Virus record (IMG/VR): IMGVR_UViG_3300028840_003424
Reading direction: 5' to 3' (one strand)
Source of the DNA: a virus
Length of the DNA stretch: 62,799 bases
Part shown: positions 1-62,799 of the stretch, one piece after another
Layout: every line of letters starts with the position of its first letter
Numbering within the stretch: position 1 is the stretch's first letter
Position numbers and translations under genes: made by a program
The notes under the pieces: model-generated
What the model was told of the DNA's origin: nothing
The model's input: the letters and a program-made list of their open reading frames with translations, nothing else
Databases searched by the model: none

Positions 1-144
1 GGTCGACGTGCCGGACGTGCAAAAGGTCGAGCGGAAAAAGCAGTAGTACCTTTTTCCTATTCCCCTTGCCCCGGTTCTGTGGTACAATTGGGGCATCAAA
101 ACCGAATCGAGAAAGAGAGGGTAACATGGAAATCACAGCAAAGC
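1..144. repeat. Terminal direct repeat, identical to 62656..62799 (circular-assembly overlap or terminal redundancy)
   Basis: Base-by-base identity of the first 144 nt with the last 144 nt of the window. Confidence 0.95.
80..88 (+). promoter_or_regulatory. Extended -10 promoter TGGTACAAT
   Basis: ccggttcTGTGGTACAATtgg, about 38 nt upstream of ATG 126; member of the recurring motif family. Confidence 0.6.
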
Positions 145-8547: not shown

Positions 8548-8772
8548 ATGAGCCCACTGTCAGAGAACGCAACAAAAATCCGCTCATGGGAGGATGTTGC
8601 GCAGCGAATGCGCAATGCCACGAACGGAAGCAGGGGGGTATCGTTCGTGACCATCCGTGTCTTTTTGAACCAAGGCCGCCCGGTGGCCTGGATATCCCCA
8701 GAGGTACAGCACGTAGAGCCGAAAGGGGACGCCGCTGGCTTTGCAGAATGGCTTGAAACGCTCTGCACTTGA
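8548..8772 (+). CDS. Hypothetical protein
   Basis: ORF 8503..8772 trimmed to ATG 8548 (GAAAGG SD). Confidence 0.45.
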   Translation: MSPLSENATKIRSWEDVAQRMRNATNGSRGVSFVTIRVFLNQGRPVAWISPEVQHVEPKGDAAGFAEWLETLCT

Positions 8773-8798
8773 CAGCATGCGCAGAATCGTGGTACAAT
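8769..8798 (+). promoter_or_regulatory. Near-consensus promoter (TTGACA-18 nt-TGgTACAAT)
   Basis: -35 TTGACA at 8769-74, spacer 18, TGGTACAAT at 8790-98; best match to the sigma70 consensus in the window. Confidence 0.75.
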
Positions 8799-8804
8799 AG
8801 GCTT

Positions 8805-8972
8805 GCGGTGGCACTGACCTAAACTCGAAAGAGAGGTCAGACCGACGACTGCCGGCCTATAAGCCTATCCCCCCCCTAGCCTGGCCGGCAGTCTTACAAC
8901 ATAGAAACAATTTTAGAAGTGGCGTAGAAAGCGCGCTGTGTCCATATCGGGCACGGCGCGCTTTCGTGTTTA
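8805..8972 (+). ncRNA. Candidate structured leader or short non-coding RNA (three hairpins, ends in a terminator)
   Basis: No ORF. Hairpins at 8814-8840 (CTGACCT/AGGTCAG), 8847-8893 (GACTGCCGGCC/GGCCGGCAGTC) and 8927-8965 (GAAAGCGCGCUGUG/CACGGCGCGCUUUC), followed by GTGTTTAT. Confidence 0.45.
8927..8972 (+). terminator. Intrinsic terminator-like hairpin closing the 8805-8972 leader
   Basis: 14-bp GC-rich stem (one G-U pair) followed by a U-rich tail UUUCGUGUUUAU. Confidence 0.5.
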
Positions 8973-8987
8973 TGGGAGAGTACAGCT

Positions 8988-9476
8988 ATGGTTATGCCGT
9001 TGGATCCAGCTTGGGACGCTTACCCGAAAGGATGGGCGAACCCCCTGAATTTGCGTGTTTCCGCCGCTCTCCCCGCTGCGGGCGCGTGGGATGCTACGCC
9101 TGTAGAGCAAGTGCTTGCCGGTGCGCGCCAACTGACCCTTGCGTTTTCCTACACTCGCGGGGGCGCGGCTGGCGCGTTTGATTGGCAACTCGAGATCTCC
9201 CACTTCTCCGCTGCCGCTCTTGTGCCAGCCGGTGGGACAGAATGGTCTGTGGCCGATGCGATCTATGCGGCTGGCGCTGTTGTCGCCGGGGCGGATACGC
9301 AGAGCACGGTACAGCAAGAGTACCAGACCTACACGGCGACCGCTGCGGCCAAAGAGGCGTTTAGCGTCGGGCCGATCATCTTTAATGGTCCTGTTGAGCG
9401 CGTGCGGATCAACTGCCGGGAATCCGGCAACGTCGGCGCTCCGGGTACCTTGCAGGTTACGGGGATAGGAACATGA
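8988..9476 (+). CDS. Hypothetical virion-module protein
   Basis: GGGAGAG SD; Ala/Gly/Thr-rich, beta-rich-looking composition. Confidence 0.55.
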   Translation: MVMPLDPAWDAYPKGWANPLNLRVSAALPAAGAWDATPVEQVLAGARQLTLAFSYTRGGAAGAFDWQLEISHFSAAALVPAGGTEWSVADAIYAAGAVVAGADTQSTVQQEYQTYTATAAAKEAFSVGPIIFNGPVERVRINCRESGNVGAPGTLQVTGIGT

Positions 9477-17309: not shown

Positions 17310-17945
17310 ATGAGCGCCACTTTTACCACCTACGGCGGAATGGGGGATGTCTACTCGGAGACCACGCCCATTGATATGGTCGTGACTGTTTTGGAAAACG
17401 ACGTTTGGCCGGTGGACAACAACAGCATGTCCGGCACAAAGGACAGCTTGCTCGACGCAAACAGCCTTTACGATGGCGTGCATCCGGTCGTCGCGATCGG
17501 GAGCCGCGTTAGCACCTCTGGGCGTGGGCTGAACCCGGTTGGCCTTGTCGTGTCTGTCACGCCGGGTTTGACCACGGCAACGTCTCAGGTCAGGGTCAAC
17601 ATCACCCATGGCAAGATCGTTCGCAATTGGGTTGCGAACGTCCTGACCTACACCGGGACGACCCCCTCCACGTTCGTCACTGCGCCATTCCCCGGACAAC
17701 CGGTGTACGTGGACGACAGCGCGGCCCTTGGGGCGGGCGTGACCTTGAGCATGAGCCCCCTGAACACGGACGGAGACCGCAACCCCCTTGGCGGGTTCCT
17801 CTGGTACTGCCAAGACGAGTTGCCGGATTCGGCAGTTGGCGGAGCACGATCGGCGGCGACGTTTGACACGTCCCTTTCAAACTCGCTGGTACAACAGGAG
17901 TATTGCGTGATGCTGCCAGGCGGCGGCGCTCGCGACATCGCCTAG
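17310..17945 (+). CDS. Hypothetical head-module protein
   Basis: 211 aa, between the scaffold-like and capsid candidates. Confidence 0.5.
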   Translation: MSATFTTYGGMGDVYSETTPIDMVVTVLENDVWPVDNNSMSGTKDSLLDANSLYDGVHPVVAIGSRVSTSGRGLNPVGLVVSVTPGLTTATSQVRVNITHGKIVRNWVANVLTYTGTTPSTFVTAPFPGQPVYVDDSAALGAGVTLSMSPLNTDGDRNPLGGFLWYCQDELPDSAVGGARSAATFDTSLSNSLVQQEYCVMLPGGGARDIA

Positions 17946-17977
17946 AAAGGGGAACAGCTAGGCAAGGAGAAACAACG

Positions 17978-19099
17978 ATGAGGCAAATTCTGAAACTGAT
18001 GCTCGATATCCGCAAGCACCAACTGTCAAAGCGAGGCTTGCAAGCGGATCGGATGGCCCAGACCACGCGGATGTTCGAGTATCTGGACACTGAAATGAGC
18101 GGCTTTAGCTCGCTCAACAGCAACGACGTTCTGCAAGAGGCTCTGGTCTCTCAGGACTTCACCTTTGCGATCATGGAGTTCGTCAATCGCTTGGCGATCC
18201 CCGGATACCAGCAACGGCTTTTCAACTTTGAGCCCCTGGTCTACGTCGATCGCGTGCAAAACTTCCTGCCGCACTACCGTTACCAGAACCGGAACGGCTT
18301 TGACGACCTGGAGTATGTGGGCACGCGGGGACGGTCCCGCACTGGCGGCATCGACGACGCAACCAAGCGGACGCACGCAGTCTACCGGTGGGAAAAGGAC
18401 ATCTCGATTGATTGGGAGACCCTGGTCAACGACGACTTGGCTTATCTGGAAGAGACTGTGCGGTTGATGGGCGAGTCGGCACGGCGCACCCTGGAACGGT
18501 TTGTGAGCCGGATGTACACCAACGCGACGAGCATCGCCCGCCTGACCGGTCTTGGGGCCAACTACTCGCAGACCGGGCGGCTGACTACGGCGCGATGGTC
18601 TGAATGTCGGATGGCTTTTGCGCAGCGCGTGAACGCCGGGAACCAACCGATCCGGGCGTCAGCGGAGTACCTTGTGCACCATACCGGACTGCGCGACACG
18701 GCGCTCCAGATCCTACGCTCTACACAGGTCGCGGAGTTGATGACGAACGCTGTGAACGTGATCAACTTTACGCCGATCGAAGATCCGCACATGGCCGGCA
18801 CTGCGCCCAACTTGCCGTGGTATGGCTTTACCCGGTGGCAGGACAACAACATCCGCCCGTTTGCGCTGGTGCGCCTCCGTGGATGGGATGGTCCGCGAGT
18901 CTACCGCAAGCGCTCCGACGTCGAGGCTGTGACCTCTTTGACCGGAGCGGGGACTGCCGTCTCTCCCGCGTTTGGAGACTTTGAGACCGGCAACATCACC
19001 CTGAAGATCCGCGATATCTGGGGCACGTACATCGACGGCACGGAAGGCAACCTGTGGGACTTCCGGGGCGCGTACTACTCCAGCGGAACCGTCGCCTAG
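17978..19099 (+). CDS. Major capsid protein candidate
   Basis: ORF trimmed to ATG 17978 (AAGGAG SD). 373 aa, follows the scaffold-like gene; not verified by homology. Confidence 0.55.
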   Translation: MRQILKLMLDIRKHQLSKRGLQADRMAQTTRMFEYLDTEMSGFSSLNSNDVLQEALVSQDFTFAIMEFVNRLAIPGYQQRLFNFEPLVYVDRVQNFLPHYRYQNRNGFDDLEYVGTRGRSRTGGIDDATKRTHAVYRWEKDISIDWETLVNDDLAYLEETVRLMGESARRTLERFVSRMYTNATSIARLTGLGANYSQTGRLTTARWSECRMAFAQRVNAGNQPIRASAEYLVHHTGLRDTALQILRSTQVAELMTNAVNVINFTPIEDPHMAGTAPNLPWYGFTRWQDNNIRPFALVRLRGWDGPRVYRKRSDVEAVTSLTGAGTAVSPAFGDFETGNITLKIRDIWGTYIDGTEGNLWDFRGAYYSSGTVA

Positions 19100-28276: not shown

Positions 28277-31045
28277 GTGCCTGAAAAAGACGGTGTAATC
28301 CTTGTAGCACAGGGAGCGTCAAAATTCGTATCCGACATGGCGGCGGCTACGAAAGCATATCAGGGCTTTATGGATGCGACCGGAAAGGGCGCATCCGGGC
28401 TATCTGCCGCTGCGTCTGCGACAAAAGACGTCTCGCAAAAAGCCAAATCGGCAAGCGGCACAATGACCTTGCTGGCCGGGGCGCTCGGTGGGGTAGCCGC
28501 CGCTGCTGCATCCGCTGCACTTGGCGGGCTCAAGCAGATGACGGGTCAGCTAAAGGGGCTCGTTTCAGAGGCGATCCAGACAGCCGGGCGCGTAAACGAG
28601 ATGGGCCTTGTCACGCAGTTGGTGGGCCAAAGGGCCGGGTTCTCTTCTGAACAAATAGACGAGTACACGCAGTCCGTCATCAAGGCTGGCATCCGTACAG
28701 ACATTGCGCAAAACCTCATTGCGCAAATGGCTCGACAGCAACTAGATCTCTCCCAGGCATCCAAGCTTGCACGTGTAGCACAGGATGCCGCGGTCCTCTC
28801 CATGTCCAACTCTTCTGAGACCTTGGCGCGCATCCAGTATGGTATACAGACCTACCAGACAGAGGTCTTGCGCACTGCCGGTCTTAACATCAACATGCAA
28901 GGCTCTTTCAAGATGCTGGCGAAAGAGCTTGGCAAGAGCACGGCAGCTTTAACGGAATCGGAAAAGCAACAAGCAGCGCTGAATGCGGTCCTAGCAGAAG
29001 GGGCCAAGATTGCCGGTACCTATGAACTGGCGATGACTTCCCCCTCCAAGGCGCTGCGTTCTCTCCCCCGCTACTTCTTTGAGATCAAGTCAGCGATCGG
29101 AGCTCCTTTTCAAGATGCGTTTGGGACGGCTATCCAGACTGTGACCAAGTTGACCAAGGCTCTGCTTGCAGCCGTGCAAGAGGGCGGCGCGCTCTATCCC
29201 CTGCTAGTCAAGCTTGGAGCAGTCGCGAGCTTGATCGCGGATGGGTTTGCGGCTCTTGTAGACAAGGTTCTCCCCGCTGTTACGAGCATCACCGGGGAGG
29301 TCGAGGGAGGGATCACCGGGCTAATCAGCAAGGCGTTCAATTGGGGAGCCAACATCGTCATTCAGTTGAGCGAGGGTATTATCAACGCCGCGTCAACTGT
29401 CTTGTCAAAGGCAATTTCCTCTCTTGGAAGAATCCTCTCCGGCTGGCTTGCCCCCGGATCTCCGCCCAAGGTCGCCCCTGACTTGCGCAAGTGGGGCGTG
29501 GGGTGGATGGCAGAGTTGTTTGCAGGGGTACCGGATGCAATGCAAGGTGTGCTTGCCGACATTCAAGGCCCGCTGCAAACGCTTTTCGAGGGCGCGGACT
29601 TTGCCAAGTTGAGCCGTCAGGTGACCGGTTTGCTCGGAAAGGGCGATCGAAAGGGGGTCTTGAACGTCCTGTCTGGTGCGGATGAGGATTTTGGCCCTAT
29701 CTTGGCCGATCTCGCTGAAAGCGAGTTCAACCTTGCGGATGCGATCGAGGCAGTCACACAAGCAGAATTGGATCTCGAGGCAGCACAAAAGCGTGTGCTT
29801 GCGGTCCAGGGCAAGGTTTCGTCAGAAACAGACGAGTACAACCGTCTCCTGAGAGAAGGGGCGAGCCAAGATGTCCTAGATGCGCAACTGGCGCGCATCA
29901 ATGCGGCAGAGGAAGAGCGCAAAGCGGCTCTTGAGGCAGAAAAGGCAGCGGCGGCCAACCTTGAAAAGCGGGAAGTAGCAGCGGACACGGCGCAAGATGA
30001 AGTGTCGGGCATGAAAGACCTGCTCGATCAACTTTTCATGTACAACCGCGCCCTGCAAGAGCAAGAAGAAGTACCTCTTATCGGCGCTGGTGGCGGGATC
30101 GTCCCTCCAGATGCACCTGAGTTCGCAGCGGTCGGCGGGATTGACATCGGCGGGGCAATTGGCGCGGCAGTAGACGCGGCAAAAGAGCAGATCAAAGAGA
30201 AGTTCAGGGGCTTGCTTGGAAGCGTGCGCAAGGTCTGGGAAGAGGGGCTTGCAGAACTGCGCAACAAGTGGAATGTTTTTGTAGCAGGGCTTGGCCTTGC
30301 TTGGGATCGGATCAAGAAAAAGTACCCCATCTTGCAGGAAGTCGAGGATTGGGTTGTCGGCATCCCTGAAAAGATCGGGACCATGATCGCCAATGGATGG
30401 GATCTGTTCAAGGGGGCGCTTGAGGCAGTCTGGTCATACATCGAGACCTATGTCTCCCCTCTGCTGGTCACCTTGCGCGACGTCGTTATAGAGACCCTGA
30501 AAGGCAAAGTGCTCGATCTCGCTCTCGCCTGGTTTGGAGAAGGGGGCCTACTCGACGGGTTGAAGCAGCTCAAAAAGTTCTGGGACGAAAAGCTTGGCCC
30601 GCTGATGAGTGAGATTTGGCCCAAGGTGGTAGAGGCCTTTCGTTTGCAGTATTTGAATCCTCTTATTGAAGGCTTTAACTGGTTTAAGGAAGGGCTAGAG
30701 AAGGTAAACGAGATACTTGGCAAGGTTCTGGAAAAGATTCGCACAGCCAACTTGAAAAAGATGGACGCTCTGATTGGGCACAGCCCGTCACCGCTCGCGA
30801 TCGGTATCTCGACTGCCGCCGACGCCATGGAGCGCATGGCAAAGGTGAGTCTCCCCCAGATGAATGCAGCTATGGGGGCCTACAGAGGGGCGGGCGCGGC
30901 GACGTTCAGGCCGGCGGGGACGACTACGAACACGACGTCAAACCAGTTCAATTTCAACTCAAGCATCAGCAGTGGCATCGATCAAGTCTCTTTTGAGGCG
31001 ATGGTCATGCGAACGATCCGGCGCGCTTTGTCGGAGGCAGCATAG
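28277..31045 (+). CDS. Tape measure protein
   Basis: 922 aa, Ala/Leu/Gly-rich with long helical/coiled-coil stretches; canonical position. Confidence 0.85.
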   Translation: MPEKDGVILVAQGASKFVSDMAAATKAYQGFMDATGKGASGLSAAASATKDVSQKAKSASGTMTLLAGALGGVAAAAASAALGGLKQMTGQLKGLVSEAIQTAGRVNEMGLVTQLVGQRAGFSSEQIDEYTQSVIKAGIRTDIAQNLIAQMARQQLDLSQASKLARVAQDAAVLSMSNSSETLARIQYGIQTYQTEVLRTAGLNINMQGSFKMLAKELGKSTAALTESEKQQAALNAVLAEGAKIAGTYELAMTSPSKALRSLPRYFFEIKSAIGAPFQDAFGTAIQTVTKLTKALLAAVQEGGALYPLLVKLGAVASLIADGFAALVDKVLPAVTSITGEVEGGITGLISKAFNWGANIVIQLSEGIINAASTVLSKAISSLGRILSGWLAPGSPPKVAPDLRKWGVGWMAELFAGVPDAMQGVLADIQGPLQTLFEGADFAKLSRQVTGLLGKGDRKGVLNVLSGADEDFGPILADLAESEFNLADAIEAVTQAELDLEAAQKRVLAVQGKVSSETDEYNRLLREGASQDVLDAQLARINAAEEERKAALEAEKAAAANLEKREVAADTAQDEVSGMKDLLDQLFMYNRALQEQEEVPLIGAGGGIVPPDAPEFAAVGGIDIGGAIGAAVDAAKEQIKEKFRGLLGSVRKVWEEGLAELRNKWNVFVAGLGLAWDRIKKKYPILQEVEDWVVGIPEKIGTMIANGWDLFKGALEAVWSYIETYVSPLLVTLRDVVIETLKGKVLDLALAWFGEGGLLDGLKQLKKFWDEKLGPLMSEIWPKVVEAFRLQYLNPLIEGFNWFKEGLEKVNEILGKVLEKIRTANLKKMDALIGHSPSPLAIGISTAADAMERMAKVSLPQMNAAMGAYRGAGAATFRPAGTTTNTTSNQFNFNSSISSGIDQVSFEAMVMRTIRRALSEAA

Positions 31046-37740: not shown

Positions 37741-37777
37741 AAAAGAGCCCTTGCCGGTCATCGGCAAGGGCTCTTTT
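37741..37777. terminator. Bidirectional rho-independent terminator between convergent operons
   Basis: AAAAGAGCCCTTGCCG-GTCAT-CGGCAAGGGCTCTTTT: 16-bp perfect stem with A/T tracts on both sides; sits between the + stop at 37718 and the - stop at 37791. Confidence 0.9.
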
Positions 37778-37790
37778 GCTTGGGTGATGT

Positions 37791-38120
37791 CTAGTACTCG
37801 TAAAATATCTCAAACCGATCGTTTGGCCTGGTATGGTTCAATCGATCGCGTTCGTGCTTGCAAGATTCAAAAGACTCAGAAAACCACATGTTAGCGTACA
37901 ATGGGAACCACGTGGTAAGCATATACTCTACAGAAGAGCCCTTGCCGGATGCATGATCATCGTAGTTGGGCGGTTCTCTATCTGGGCGGATCTCGCTATA
38001 CAATGCCGCAAGCTTGCACCATGCATCTTGTGCGTCAAGGTTCGCATGCTTGTAATGTGAGACGATCGCCTTGATGTCGTCCGTGTGTTGGCCCTTGGTT
38101 TGCTCTACCCAATATGGCAT
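37791..38120 (-). CDS. Hypothetical protein
   Basis: ORF 37791..38183 trimmed to the ATG at 38120, after the leader cacacgaaaggaaaaaacg. Confidence 0.55.
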   Translation of the reverse strand: MPYWVEQTKGQHTDDIKAIVSHYKHANLDAQDAWCKLAALYSEIRPDREPPNYDDHASGKGSSVEYMLTTWFPLYANMWFSESFESCKHERDRLNHTRPNDRFEIFYEY

Positions 38121-38163
38121 CGTTTTTTCCTTTCGTGTGTGTGTTCTCATTTCCCCCAAGGCC

Positions 38164-38172
38164 ATTGTACCA
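38164..38172 (-). promoter_or_regulatory. Extended -10 promoter (TGGTACAAT on the minus strand)
   Basis: Reverse complement gtgTGGTACAATggccttggggg...cacacacgaaagg leads into the ATG at 38120. Confidence 0.65.
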
Positions 38173-38202
38173 CACAACCCCATGCTAGTCGATGGGACTT
38201 GG

Positions 38203-38294: not shown

Positions 38295-38338
38295 GGTTCT
38301 AGCGTTTGATAGGTTCAATCACACGAAAGGAAAAAACG

Positions 38339-39742
38339 ATGTTGACGGTAAAGGATCTGAAACGATTTTGCGGACGTGGTTATGCGCTCAAGAACATTGG
38401 GCGTAAGGTGTTTTGGTTCAAGGATCCCGAGAACGGATTGGCGCCGTTCTGGAGTGATGGTAGCATGACCATCTTTTCAGATGCCCCAAGCACGATCAAG
38501 CGTCGGGCGGAGGATCCGGCAAAGTGGCCCAAGTTGCCCCAGACGATCGCGCGGTTTTTGCCCAAGTTGATCAAGTCACTTACGCCGATCATGGTCGGGG
38601 CGCTCAAGAGCGAGACGGACGATATCTCCCATCTTTTGATGCTTGTCGATGCCGATGAGCAAGTCCACTTTTTGGATGCCCGACGCATTGCCATGGTGCT
38701 TGCATCGGATGACCCAGAAACGACGATCGCAGATCTCGAGTTTTTGACCGAAAACAAGGGCAAGGGCAAACCGATCCTTGTGAGAATCAACAAGCAAACC
38801 CGGGCGATCGTTGCGCAATGCGCGATCACGGGTGATTTTGAGTTTGATTCCCCTCACACTTATGTCTTTGCCGATGAGGCCGGCGCGGATGAGACCGGCG
38901 CGGATGAGACCGACGCCGATGAGACCGACGCCGATGAGACCGACGCCGATGAGGCCGACGCCGATGAGACCGACGCCGATGAGACCGACGCCGATGAGAC
39001 CGACGCCGATGAGACCGACGCCGATGAGACCCCAGAAGAACCATGGTGCACCGCAGACGATGCCCCAAGGCCCAAGCTTAAGGTCTGGAGAGCGATCAAA
39101 TCTTACCCACGTTTCACACTTGACGATGACGGGTACACTCTGTATACCGGGGCGATCAATCCCACCATGTATCAAGCAAAAACGCGCAAGTTTGAGTATA
39201 AGCCGGGGCGGGGCGGGTTTGCACATTCGATTTATGGATTGGTTGAAACGACCAACCATTTTGACGGGGCGGATGCCGACGCGATCGGTAACCCGTTCCA
39301 ATTCTCTTGGGACGATTGGAGCGAGTATACCTCAAGTCCAGAGTATACCCGTGGTCCTACGATGGGTGTCTGGTACATGGCCGATCGTGAAAATGGTCCC
39401 ACGGATACGGATTGGGCATATGCGGATGAGTTGGCACGTCAAGAACGGGTGATCGGTCTTTTGCTCATTGCCAAGCTTGCCGATGGTAGCATTTGGGGAT
39501 ACTTTTTGCCGGGGCGATCGCCAGATGTGCGCGATACGATGTGGGCCTACAAAACCAAGATCAAGGGCGCAAGCAAGACCAAGGCCAAGCCCGAGGCCGA
39601 TGAGCCCGAGGCCGATGAGCCCGAGGCCGATGAGCCCGAGGCCGATGAGCCCGAGGCCGATGAGCCCGAGGCCGATGAGCCCGAGGCCGATGAGCCCGAG
39701 GCCGACGCCGACGCGATCGCCTTGCCGGAAAAGGCAAGCTAA
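38339..39742 (+). CDS. Hypothetical protein with two acidic tandem-repeat tracts
   Basis: ATG 38339 after the conserved leader. (ADETD)n and (EADEP)n tracts encoded by 15-bp repeats. Confidence 0.7.
   Translation: MLTVKDLKRFCGRGYALKNIGRKVFWFKDPENGLAPFWSDGSMTIFSDAPSTIKRRAEDPAKWPKLPQTIARFLPKLIKSLTPIMVGALKSETDDISHLLMLVDADEQVHFLDARRIAMVLASDDPETTIADLEFLTENKGKGKPILVRINKQTRAIVAQCAITGDFEFDSPHTYVFADEAGADETGADETDADETDADETDADEADADETDADETDADETDADETDADETPEEPWCTADDAPRPKLKVWRAIKSYPRFTLDDDGYTLYTGAINPTMYQAKTRKFEYKPGRGGFAHSIYGLVETTNHFDGADADAIGNPFQFSWDDWSEYTSSPEYTRGPTMGVWYMADRENGPTDTDWAYADELARQERVIGLLLIAKLADGSIWGYFLPGRSPDVRDTMWAYKTKIKGASKTKAKPEADEPEADEPEADEPEADEPEADEPEADEPEADEPEADADAIALPEKAS
38870..39034 (+). 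repeat. In-frame 15-bp tandem repeat, about 11 units (GCCGATGAGACCGAC; peptide ADETD)
   Basis: Direct reading of consecutive 15-nt units with a few substitutions. Confidence 0.9.
39590..39709 (+). repeat. In-frame 15-bp tandem repeat, 7 full units plus 1 partial (CCCGAGGCCGATGAG; peptide PEADE)
   Basis: Seven identical consecutive units, then a diverged unit. Confidence 0.9.
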
Positions 39743-41917: not shown

Positions 41918-42355
41918 CTATTTGCTCTCCGGCTTTTCCTCAGAGACATAGGAGACAGCGCCCAACGAGATAGGCAAGACGCCCTGCTCTCGTAGCATGA
42001 CGGTAGAGGCATACTGCTCTTGCGCAAGCTCTCGCGGCCACGACTTGGCGCGGGAAACGATATCTTGGGCAAAAAGGGCGACCAGCGCGGTCAGTACGCG
42101 CCCAAGGACAAGCGGCATCTGTGGATAGCTGGCCGGATCGAAGAGATTGACCCCGGCGAACCAACAGAGCAACCCGGCGACAATGGCCTGAATGTACTGC
42201 TCTGCAAAGTCCAGAATATCGATCGCAAGCGCAAGGTTGGGCCTGGCATCGGATCGAGTGGACAAAAAGGTGACGATCGGCTGGTAAAAGTGTTCCACGA
42301 TCGCGAGAGATACAGCGGCAAAAAGGGCTACTCCGGCAATGGCTTCACCGTTCAT
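41918..42355 (-). CDS. Multi-pass membrane protein
   Basis: Three or four hydrophobic segments (IAGVALFAAVSLAIV, IQAIVAGLLCWFAGV, LVLGRVLTALVALFA). Confidence 0.55.
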   Translation of the reverse strand: MNGEAIAGVALFAAVSLAIVEHFYQPIVTFLSTRSDARPNLALAIDILDFAEQYIQAIVAGLLCWFAGVNLFDPASYPQMPLVLGRVLTALVALFAQDIVSRAKSWPRELAQEQYASTVMLREQGVLPISLGAVSYVSEEKPESK

Positions 42356-42435: not shown

Positions 42436-42444
42436 ATTGTACCA
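42436..42444 (-). promoter_or_regulatory. Extended -10 promoter (TGGTACAAT on the minus strand)
   Basis: Reverse complement gaatcgTGGTACAATcaagc, upstream of the minus-strand gene starting at 42355. Confidence 0.6.
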
Positions 42445-42469
42445 CGATTCTGCACTTACTGTCAAGCGT

Positions 42470-58281: not shown

Positions 58282-58290
58282 ATTGTACCA
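58282..58290 (-). promoter_or_regulatory. Extended -10 promoter (TGGTACAAT on the minus strand)
   Basis: Reverse complement gtttcgTGGTACAATggccc...cacacgaaagggcgcaaaATG (58237). Confidence 0.65.
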
Positions 58291-58374: not shown

Positions 58375-58383
58375 TGGTACAAT
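58375..58383 (+). promoter_or_regulatory. Extended -10 promoter TGGTACAAT
   Basis: cctttcgTGGTACAATggccttggggggaacgagaatacacacacgaaagggg...ATG (58430); near-duplicate of the cassette at 38164. Confidence 0.65.
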
Positions 58384-58429
58384 GGCCTTGGGGGGAACGA
58401 GAATACACACACGAAAGGGGCAAGGCCAA

Positions 58430-62520: not shown

Positions 62521-62701
62521 TTCTGCTCTTGTTGAGACTTTGCGCGCCAAGGCCGAATCCCTGCTTGACAAGATGGAAGGCATGACCAAGCCAAGCCCGT
62601 AGCACTCTGCTGCTCTATCCGTTCTGGCCGACATCGAGCACGAGATCGGGCGACTGGTCGACGTGCCGGACGTGCAAAAGGTCGAGCGGAAAAAGCAGTA
62701 G
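62513..62701 (+). CDS. Small helical protein interrupted by an in-frame TAG (62600-62602)
   Basis: A 29-codon ORF continues in the same frame for 32 more protein-like codons (HSAALSVLADIEHEIGRLVDVPDVQKVERKKQ) with no start of its own. Confidence 0.35.
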
Positions 62702-62799
62702 TACCTTTTTCCTATTCCCCTTGCCCCGGTTCTGTGGTACAATTGGGGCATCAAAACCGAATCGAGAAAGAGAGGGTAACATGGAAATCACAGCAAAGC
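62656..62799. repeat. Second copy of the 144-nt terminal repeat
   Basis: Identical to 1..144, including the promoter at 80-88 and the ATG at 126. Confidence 0.95.

Follow-up and report, generated by a model that had tools for sequence, protein, structure and literature searches.

A promoter–box–terminator leader ahead of the late genes in a clade of uncultured phages: a candidate premature-termination gate

Introduction

Why would a phage place a strong promoter ahead of its late genes and then a transcription terminator between that promoter and the first of these genes? This question is raised by a virus sequence of 62,799 nt (IMG/VR record IMGVR_UViG_3300028840_003424; the whole stretch is called the window in the following), in which a 215-nt gap separates a plus-strand gene ending at 8772 from the next plus-strand block. 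A preliminary description had proposed that a promoter at this gap drives a structured RNA of about 170 nt that contains no open reading frame (ORF) and ends in a terminator just ahead of the late genes. It had likened this arrangement to PR'-tR' of phage lambda, with a riboswitch-like leader and a stand-alone small RNA (sRNA) as alternatives. Here we compare the region with its counterparts in metagenomic relatives. The layout of promoter and terminator is probably a late-expression switch rather than a stand-alone structured RNA gene. We prefer, if still tentatively, to read the region as the leader of the late (capsid/tail) unit, built as a premature-termination gate in which read-through is controlled locally at the terminator.

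A promoter, three hairpins and a ribosome-binding site

On the plus strand, the gap follows small genes, the genes of the small and large terminase subunits, a portal gene, a minor head gene and a 74-aa gene. The genes behind the gap (8988–37718) all lie on the plus strand without interruption and form a 29-kb structural block. This gene order agrees with the position that had been described, ahead of the late genes and after the portal and minor head genes. A sigma-70-type promoter, TTGACA-18 nt-TG-n-TACAAT, is predicted at 8769–8798 (plus strand), with TTGACA at 8769–8774, TG at 8790–8791 and TACAAT at 8793–8798 (11/12 and an extended -10), and transcription is predicted to start at ~8805. 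The preliminary description had called TTGACA-18-TGgTACAAT the best promoter in the genome; the motif is exact, but the rank is shared. A whole-genome scan found three 11/12 promoters with TG, at 8769(+), 42465(-) and 47352(-), and a fourth 11/12 match at 29408(-) without TG and with a spacer of 19 nt.

The predicted RNA would extend from ~8805 to ~8972 and thus have a length of ~168 nt, close to what had been proposed. Folding of 8805–8975 resulted in three hairpins with a free energy of -75.9 kcal/mol (z = -6.5; 0 of 200 shuffles equal this value), where each of the hairpins is significant, and no ORF of at least 20 aa is found inside 8800–8937. The description of three consecutive hairpins and no ORF is thus borne out. 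Hairpin 1 (8814–8840, plus strand, z -4.2) has 7+3 bp and a GAAA loop, and hairpin 2 (8847–8893, plus strand, z -5.5) has an 11-bp stem and a 25-nt loop with a run of eight C (8869–8876). These are followed by an unstructured A/U-rich linker (8894–8926, plus strand, z +0.8) that carries a sequence box, ACAACATAGAA at 8896–8906, three copies of TAGAA (8902, 8914 and 8925) and a short GC element, GGCG at 8921–8924.

Hairpin 3 (8927–8965, plus strand, z -6.7) is a stem-loop of 17 bp with the loop CATAT. Eleven of its 17 pairs are G-C, and it runs into the U-tract TTTCGTGTTTAT (8962–8973, plus strand), so that the predicted 3' end of the RNA is at ~8970–8973. A GC-rich stem-loop followed by a U-tract is the signature of an intrinsic terminator. 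The GC-rich stem had been described correctly, as had the U-rich tail, but the tail is degenerate and weak. The stem ends at 8965, which is 8 nt from the Shine–Dalgarno sequence (SD; GGGAGAG, 8974–8980) and 22 nt from the ATG at 8988 of the first late gene (SD to start codon, 8974–8990, plus strand); the distance to the SD had been given as 16 nt and is in fact half of that.

The cassette is kept in metagenomic relatives

Searching the DNA of cultured phages gave no match for the genome and none for the region. At the protein level, cultured phages contained nothing similar to the 162-aa protein that is encoded by the first late gene, and they yielded portal matches only, with 20–25% identity. 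With these searches empty apart from weak portal matches, the phage has no characterised relative. Relatives were collected via the 162-aa protein, for which 382 metagenomic homologues were found, all of them unannotated. We fetched one viral contig, 80 metagenomic loci, one contig by exact protein look-up and three contigs from metagenome-assembled genomes (MAGs), and the comparison set consists of 61 non-redundant upstream regions.

We observed a near-consensus promoter of the same type in 55 of the 61 relatives, 71–309 nt upstream of the ATG, and the majority of these promoters combine a perfect TTGACA with an extended -10. A GC-rich hairpin with a T-tract directly after it (typically TTTTTGTTTT or TTTTTGCGTT) is present in ~50 of the 61 and ends 5–15 nt before the SD. 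With a strict definition of a terminator, 24 of 60 relatives have one within the 55-nt interval before the ATG, compared to a background of 0.0017 per interval, and such terminators are more than 200-fold enriched over the remaining plus strand of the same loci. Most of the family keeps this succession of promoter, terminator and SD, which runs opposite to that of a usual operon junction. Furthermore, six relatives (L014, L008, L016, L040, L053 and L001) have a tandem pair of terminators, which suggests selection for efficient stopping. In the closest relative, L007, stem and loop of hairpin 3 are identical and the tail is TTTTTGCGTTTT instead. A 16-mer from the flank of hairpin 3 was of little use as a probe of IMG/VR, as 17 of the 18 loci that it returned were chance matches in coding DNA.

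The junction with the upstream gene is also similar across the family. The stop codon of the upstream ORF is the TGA of the predicted -35 hexamer TTGACA here and in 23 of 56 relatives, which would make this an unusually tight overlap of gene and promoter that is kept across the family. Four contigs with homologues (including L082, L101 and L102) belong to MAGs of Chloroflexota or Patescibacteria, and Anaerolineae or Chloroflexi account for three of the four. This points weakly to Chloroflexota, possibly Anaerolineae, as the hosts of the clade. Judged by these comparisons, the unit conserved in this large clade of uncultured phages appears to be a cassette of promoter, box, terminator and SD at the head of the late block.

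Covariation is found in the terminator helix

Aligning 42 leaders with MAFFT and folding them with RNAalifold did not result in a consensus because the stems cannot be aligned by sequence, and a covariance model was used instead. This model (R1) was built from 11 training sequences including this phage, and it spans the box, the GC element, the terminator, the U-tract and the SD. In the window it matches the module of ~95 nt at 8895–8988 (plus strand; 63.1 bits, E = 1e-12), which is the sole plus-strand match in 62,799 nt and is itself a training sequence. In the relatives, every full-length match lies at the homologous site, also for loci on which the model was not trained (E from 1e-13 to ~0.1). 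The few partial matches that cover only the hairpin are tandem copies or lie on the reverse strand.

In an alignment of 44 sequences, 84% of the cells are paired, and each of the 17 modelled pairs shows compensatory double changes. For covariation, the score is 0.527, compared to 0.162 for shuffles (0 of 500 reach the observed score) and at most 0.13 for slid controls. This alignment was fitted to the model and thus favours the structure; the margin is large, however, and the hairpin sequences plainly differ from each other. As the covariation rests on the terminator helix, the conserved RNA structure is hairpin 3 and not the whole RNA of 170 nt. The check on relatives that had been suggested thus supports the last hairpin but does not extend to hairpins 1 and 2, and the structured RNA of the preliminary description, although predicted at nearly the proposed length, is not a conserved entity.

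A sequence box and a GC element accompany the terminator

Most of 47 non-redundant relatives contain an 11-nt box with the consensus ACAACTGAATA and an invariant-like AA..AATA, located 9–25 nt upstream of the terminator. The motif was found by Gibbs sampling with a log-likelihood of 277, compared to ~182 for shuffles. In this phage, the placement at 8896–8906 was made by eye, whereas the sampler itself chose ACAATTTTAGA at 8906–8916. The distance from the box to the terminator is constrained, whereas its distance to the promoter varies from ~+5 to more than +200. A box-like sequence also stands ahead of each of the tandem terminators in L014, L008, L016 and L040 (identified by eye). The duplication of terminators together with their boxes suggests that termination itself is selected and that the box is part of the terminator module. 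The box thus appears to be a new, previously undescribed element.

Two simple explanations of the box were rejected. Its complementarity to the U-tail is no stronger than expected, with -6.9 kcal/mol for the actual sequence and -7.5 kcal/mol for shuffled ones. It is also not a -10-like pause element or a second promoter, as it tracks the terminator and its commonest form lacks key -10 bases: by our reading of the motif output, this form, CTGAAT/TGAATA, is without the A(-11) of a -10.

Between box and hairpin lies the short GC element, for instance GCGC, GACGC, GAGGC or GTGCC in relatives and GGCG here. It is complementary to the bottom of the 5' arm of the terminator, and pairing of the two would shorten the stem beside the U-tract. 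Non-palindromic complementary pairs are GACGC/GCGTC, GACGG/CCGTC, GAGGC/GCCTC and GTGCC/GGCAC. For seven of eight relatives tested, the fold predicted for the nascent RNA before completion of the terminator is this small hairpin of GC element and 5' arm. We hypothesise that this small alternative hairpin forms and acts as an antiterminator.

The leader upstream of the box is a variable slot

Hairpins 1 and 2 have no counterpart in most relatives. Only L007 has an architecture like that of hairpin 2, with a different sequence, and a 19-mer of hairpin 2 had no match in IMG/VR. Among relatives, promoter and box are separated by anything from virtually nil to ~230 nt, and this stretch contains unrelated structures in different phages. 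In the shortest leaders, -10 and ATG are 71 nt apart, and ~22 relatives have a leader of at most 95 nt without any structured 5' part. Hairpins 1 and 2 therefore appear to be a lineage-specific insert in a variable leader slot, outside the conserved mechanism.

This variability speaks against a riboswitch or another ligand-sensing attenuator, an idea that a structured leader ahead of a terminator naturally suggests. The structured part is not conserved, and the minimal leaders hold only ~15–25 nt before the terminator, which leaves no room for an aptamer. Furthermore, no Rfam family matches at gathering or relaxed thresholds: an E-value search of 8600–9100 gave chance-level matches only, and 16 relatives gave none. 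We consider the riboswitch-like leader of the preliminary description highly improbable and have dropped it.

The same slot bears on the question of whether the unit is mainly an sRNA gene. In such a case, a trans-acting sRNA would derive from the untranslated 5' region (5'UTR), with a 5' seed or cargo that varies, a chaperone site rich in A/U and the terminator, and the late genes would be expressed by constitutive partial read-through. The classical architecture of Hfq-type sRNAs consists of a structured 5' part, a single-stranded A/U-rich stretch, a terminator hairpin and a U-tail. All of these parts are present here, the weak U-tract would fit a leaky terminator, and the slot between promoter and box holds differing structured RNAs across phages (a tRNA-like one in L070, a structured leader of 300 nt in L082). 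There is also precedent, as 5'UTR-derived sRNAs arise by premature termination in phages 201phi2-1 and phiKZ (PMC11512511). The 5' part, which would carry the specificity, is however not conserved even in L007 and is missing in the ~22 relatives with short leaders, whereas the conserved features, namely box, terminator and position before the SD, are tied to the downstream gene. A search of the phage genome for targets of the hairpin-2 loop gave nothing significant. The C8 run (8869–8876) can pair with a run of six G at the 5' end of the leader of the promoter at 58375 (58390–58400), at -25.5 kcal/mol, which only reaches about the 1st percentile of random windows; the genome contains ~20 such G6 runs. 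For the same reason, as the pairing is not significant, an anti-SD or anti-leader role of the C-rich loop was rejected. Taken together, we regard a main function as sRNA gene as unlikely, though as a serious alternative.

Three leaders of relatives are worth describing in their own right. The leader of L070 contains a tRNA-like element (~137–230) with a long acceptor-like stem, a T-arm GTGGGTTCGAGGCCCAC and an end in ...ACCGCCA, which is called neither by ARAGORN nor by Rfam. In L082 (9641–10001; the contig is part of a Chloroflexi MAG), a leader of ~300 nt with a fold of -150 kcal/mol stands upstream of the same module of box and terminator. Lastly, the leader of L079 contains three or four direct repeats of AATCACGAC.

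A premature-termination gate and its alternatives

In the premature-termination gate that we propose, a strong, activator-independent promoter of the host primary-sigma type would fire toward the late genes, and ~160 nt further on RNA polymerase would meet hairpin 3 and the U-tract, just short of the first late SD. By default, the product would be the non-coding RNA of ~168 nt. The terminator would also halt transcripts that arrive from the upstream terminase–portal operon. The interval between terminator and SD is too short for a promoter, so that late transcription has to cross the terminator no matter if its start is at 8769 or further upstream, and the 29-kb late block would be expressed only when polymerase reads through. 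A candidate factor, from the phage or from the host, would recognise the single-stranded box (ACAACTGAATA-like, ACAACATAGAA here), the GC element or both, and its control of read-through would be local. Local control is favoured since the box travels with the terminator, no Q protein was found among the ORFs scanned and internal terminators are lacking in the late block: with no strong plus-strand terminator between 8988 and 37741, a local switch would suffice. What the sequences show are the signals themselves, namely promoter, hairpins, box and terminator, with their conservation and covariation; that transcription ends here in vivo, that read-through is regulated and that the box takes part in this is our inference.

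Several observations weigh against the gate. Pfam and PHROGs searches of 33 early or small non-structural ORFs revealed no Q, no other antiterminator and no RNA-binding regulator, so that the search for an antiterminator that the preliminary description had called for came back empty; many of these ORFs are without any annotation, and a novel analogue may be among them. The binding partner of the box is a candidate factor only. Promoter and terminator are predicted signals and may not function with the RNA polymerase of the host. In this phage, the tail TTTCGTGTTTAT has a d'Aubenton-Carafa score of 3.08, compared to a median of 4.69 in the relatives, and is among the weakest of the family; termination may be inefficient here, and with its weakened U-tract the gate is probably leakier than those of the relatives. 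Two relatives, L019 and L066, have a -10-like element that abuts the hairpin, and transcripts starting there would escape it. For the small alternative hairpin, the permutation tests gave p = 0.023 and p = 0.23, and the fold z-scores are not significant.

Some of these points would suit an unregulated leader or insulator. Here, the hairpin would end the terminase–portal operon; in transcripts that read through or are processed, it would stabilise the mRNA, and the U-rich stretch by the SD would enhance translation. The promoter would only boost late transcription, without any factor-dependent switch. The L019 and L066 promoters fit such a pure insulator role, since their transcripts would lack the full stem, and so do the degenerate tail of this phage, the lack of a regulator among the ORFs scanned and the U-tract that abuts the SD in nearly all relatives. 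The family as a whole argues otherwise. In 55 of 61 relatives, a promoter stands upstream of a canonical terminator (median tail 4.69), and most initiations would be wasted if this block were not relieved. The tandem terminators of six relatives argue for tight stopping, and the hairpin lies away from the 5' end of the transcript, which is where stabilisers act. In addition, an insulator leaves the conservation of the box unexplained. We thus think it rather unlikely that the leader is unregulated.

A more far-reaching version of the premature-termination gate is possible, and we put it forward as a doubtful one. In this version, the module of box and terminator would be the target of a novel terminator-specific antitermination factor that times the late genes in a large clade of uncultured siphophages, probably of Anaerolineae/Chloroflexota, and the stretch between promoter and box would have been put to use for expressing abundant, early, lineage-specific sRNAs. 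Hairpins 1 and 2 here and the tRNA-like element in L070 would be such RNAs.

If the gate works as proposed, the succession of consensus promoter, box, terminator and SD would be a sequence signature of the early-to-late boundary in widespread uncultured phages. It would also represent a mechanism of antitermination or attenuation without a recognisable protein component, and phage non-coding RNAs could readily be expressed from its variable leader slot. Should the gate be no more than a leaky terminator, the leader would still be a well-supported conserved element, but an ordinary one.

Genome context and promoter family

The first 144 nt of the window (1–144) are duplicated exactly at 62656–62799, which leaves a unique length of 62,655 bp. 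This exact end repeat indicates that the genome is complete and either circularly closed or terminally redundant. Its GC content is ~57%, and scans for tRNAs and for Rfam families (at gathering score) found none. The late block contains a capsid-like gene (17903–19099, plus strand), a tape measure gene (28277–31045, plus strand) and tail genes, and replication and early genes lie mainly on the minus strand beyond 40 kb. Besides hairpin 3, the only strong plus-strand terminator is at the end of the late block (37741–37777). It is bidirectional, with a perfect 16-bp hairpin flanked by A/T runs (AAAAGAGCCCTTGCCGG...CCGGCAAGGGCTCTTTT), and separates the late block from a convergent gene at 37791–38183. 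Among the predicted proteins, no phage-encoded RNA polymerase was found, and the large late ORFs are the tape measure and virion proteins. An ORF of 478 aa at 38306–39742 contains two tracts of acidic tandem repeats, (ADETD)n and (EADEP)n, and matches no family.

The first gene past the terminator (8988–9476, plus strand) encodes the 162-aa protein, for which an all-beta, jelly-roll-like fold is predicted (pLDDT 74). The predicted structure has neither a confident match in the PDB nor a confident structural neighbour. The small gene upstream of the promoter ('p75', 8548–8772, plus strand; TGA stop at 8770–8772, within the -35 hexamer) encodes 74 aa with a predicted alpha-beta4-alpha fold that has no PDB match, and it is syntenic in only some relatives. 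It was considered as an analogue of Q and rejected, given its patchy synteny, a word-index search that found only the protein itself and the lack of a structural match.

The extended -10 TGGTACAAT has 10 exact copies in the genome, or nine when the 144-nt terminal duplicate is discounted, and TGGTAGAAT adds two further ones. The predicted promoter at 8769–8798 is one of a family of ~11 with this string in common. With one mismatch allowed, there are 30 matches compared to 7.3 expected. The exact copies are at 80, 8790, 36738, 38164(-), 38286, 42436(-), 44931(-), 58282(-), 58375 and 62735, and most of them lack a good -35 hexamer. They look like the standard promoter set of this phage. The predicted promoter at 42436–42465(-) is identical to that at 8769–8798(+) in 26 of 30 positions, including the spacer GCAGAATCGTGG; a common operator or a recent duplication could account for this likeness. 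The promoter at 42436–42465(-) drives a minus-strand gene (ATG near 42355), and its leader contains a hairpin without a U-tract. There are also two divergent promoter pairs, 38164–38172(-)/38286–38294(+) and 58282–58290(-)/58375–58383(+), whose leaders end in (C)ACACACGAAAGG before the start codons. These leader ends are a conserved context of early-gene leaders or ribosome-binding sites.

Comparison with known systems

One close parallel is PR'-qut-tR' of lambda, with its 6S RNA and the antiterminator Q. Both systems have, by prediction in the case of this phage, a strong activator-independent promoter, a short terminated non-coding RNA with a long late operon behind it, and a small gene directly upstream of the promoter, where lambda has Q. 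A strict lambda-type mechanism would require that RNA polymerase picks up a Q-like protein at a promoter-proximal element and a sigma-dependent pause, and that it then resists terminators through the whole operon. A protein that binds the promoter spacer is conceivable, since this spacer is nearly identical to that of the second promoter at 42436–42465(-). What is shared with lambda is the order of promoter and terminator ahead of late genes. The ORFs scanned contain no match to the Q family, and the upstream small gene is not universal and has an unrecognisable fold. Furthermore, no conserved element besides the hexamers stands at a fixed position next to the promoter, as Q-binding and sigma-dependent pause elements would: the conserved cis element lies by the terminator instead of the promoter, and is duplicated together with it. 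The late operon also has no further terminators that would need processive antitermination. Lastly, the cassette is placed among the morphogenesis genes and behind those for terminase, portal and minor head protein, whereas that of lambda precedes the lysis and terminase genes. The likeness to lambda that had been noted thus holds for the conserved logic of promoter, terminator and late genes, with a helix that covaries, but not for a Q-type mechanism, which we consider quite improbable with a box that is tied to the terminator.

The put RNA of phage HK022 resembles this leader in that two stem-loops stand between promoter and terminator. A put-like element would be a conserved pair of stem-loops, whereas hairpins 1 and 2 differ between relatives and are absent in many that keep the terminator.

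Protein-dependent attenuators (BglG/SacY-RAT, ANTAR and PyrR) are similar in that a weak hairpin could overlap the 5' arm of the terminator, with a single-stranded recognition sequence adjoining, and in that control would be local and specific to each terminator. In contrast, the alternative hairpin here has just 4–6 bp and weak statistical support, and the Pfam scan of the phage ORFs found no protein with a CAT, ANTAR or PyrR domain.

Jumbo phages provide a further parallel. Terminators just downstream of promoters, before capsid and tail genes, have been mapped experimentally in these phages, and a control of timing together with antitermination has been proposed (PMC11512511). As in the units of 201phi2-1 and phiKZ, the terminator here follows directly after the promoter and before structural genes, in a position that is conserved among related phages (PMC11512511). 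Whereas the signals predicted here are of the host sigma-70 type, transcription in those phages relies on RNA polymerases and promoters of their own; the sequences bear no similarity, and the paper does not report the box of this phage (PMC11512511). Thus, the control logic itself is of a known kind, and what is new here is a box that is linked to the terminator.

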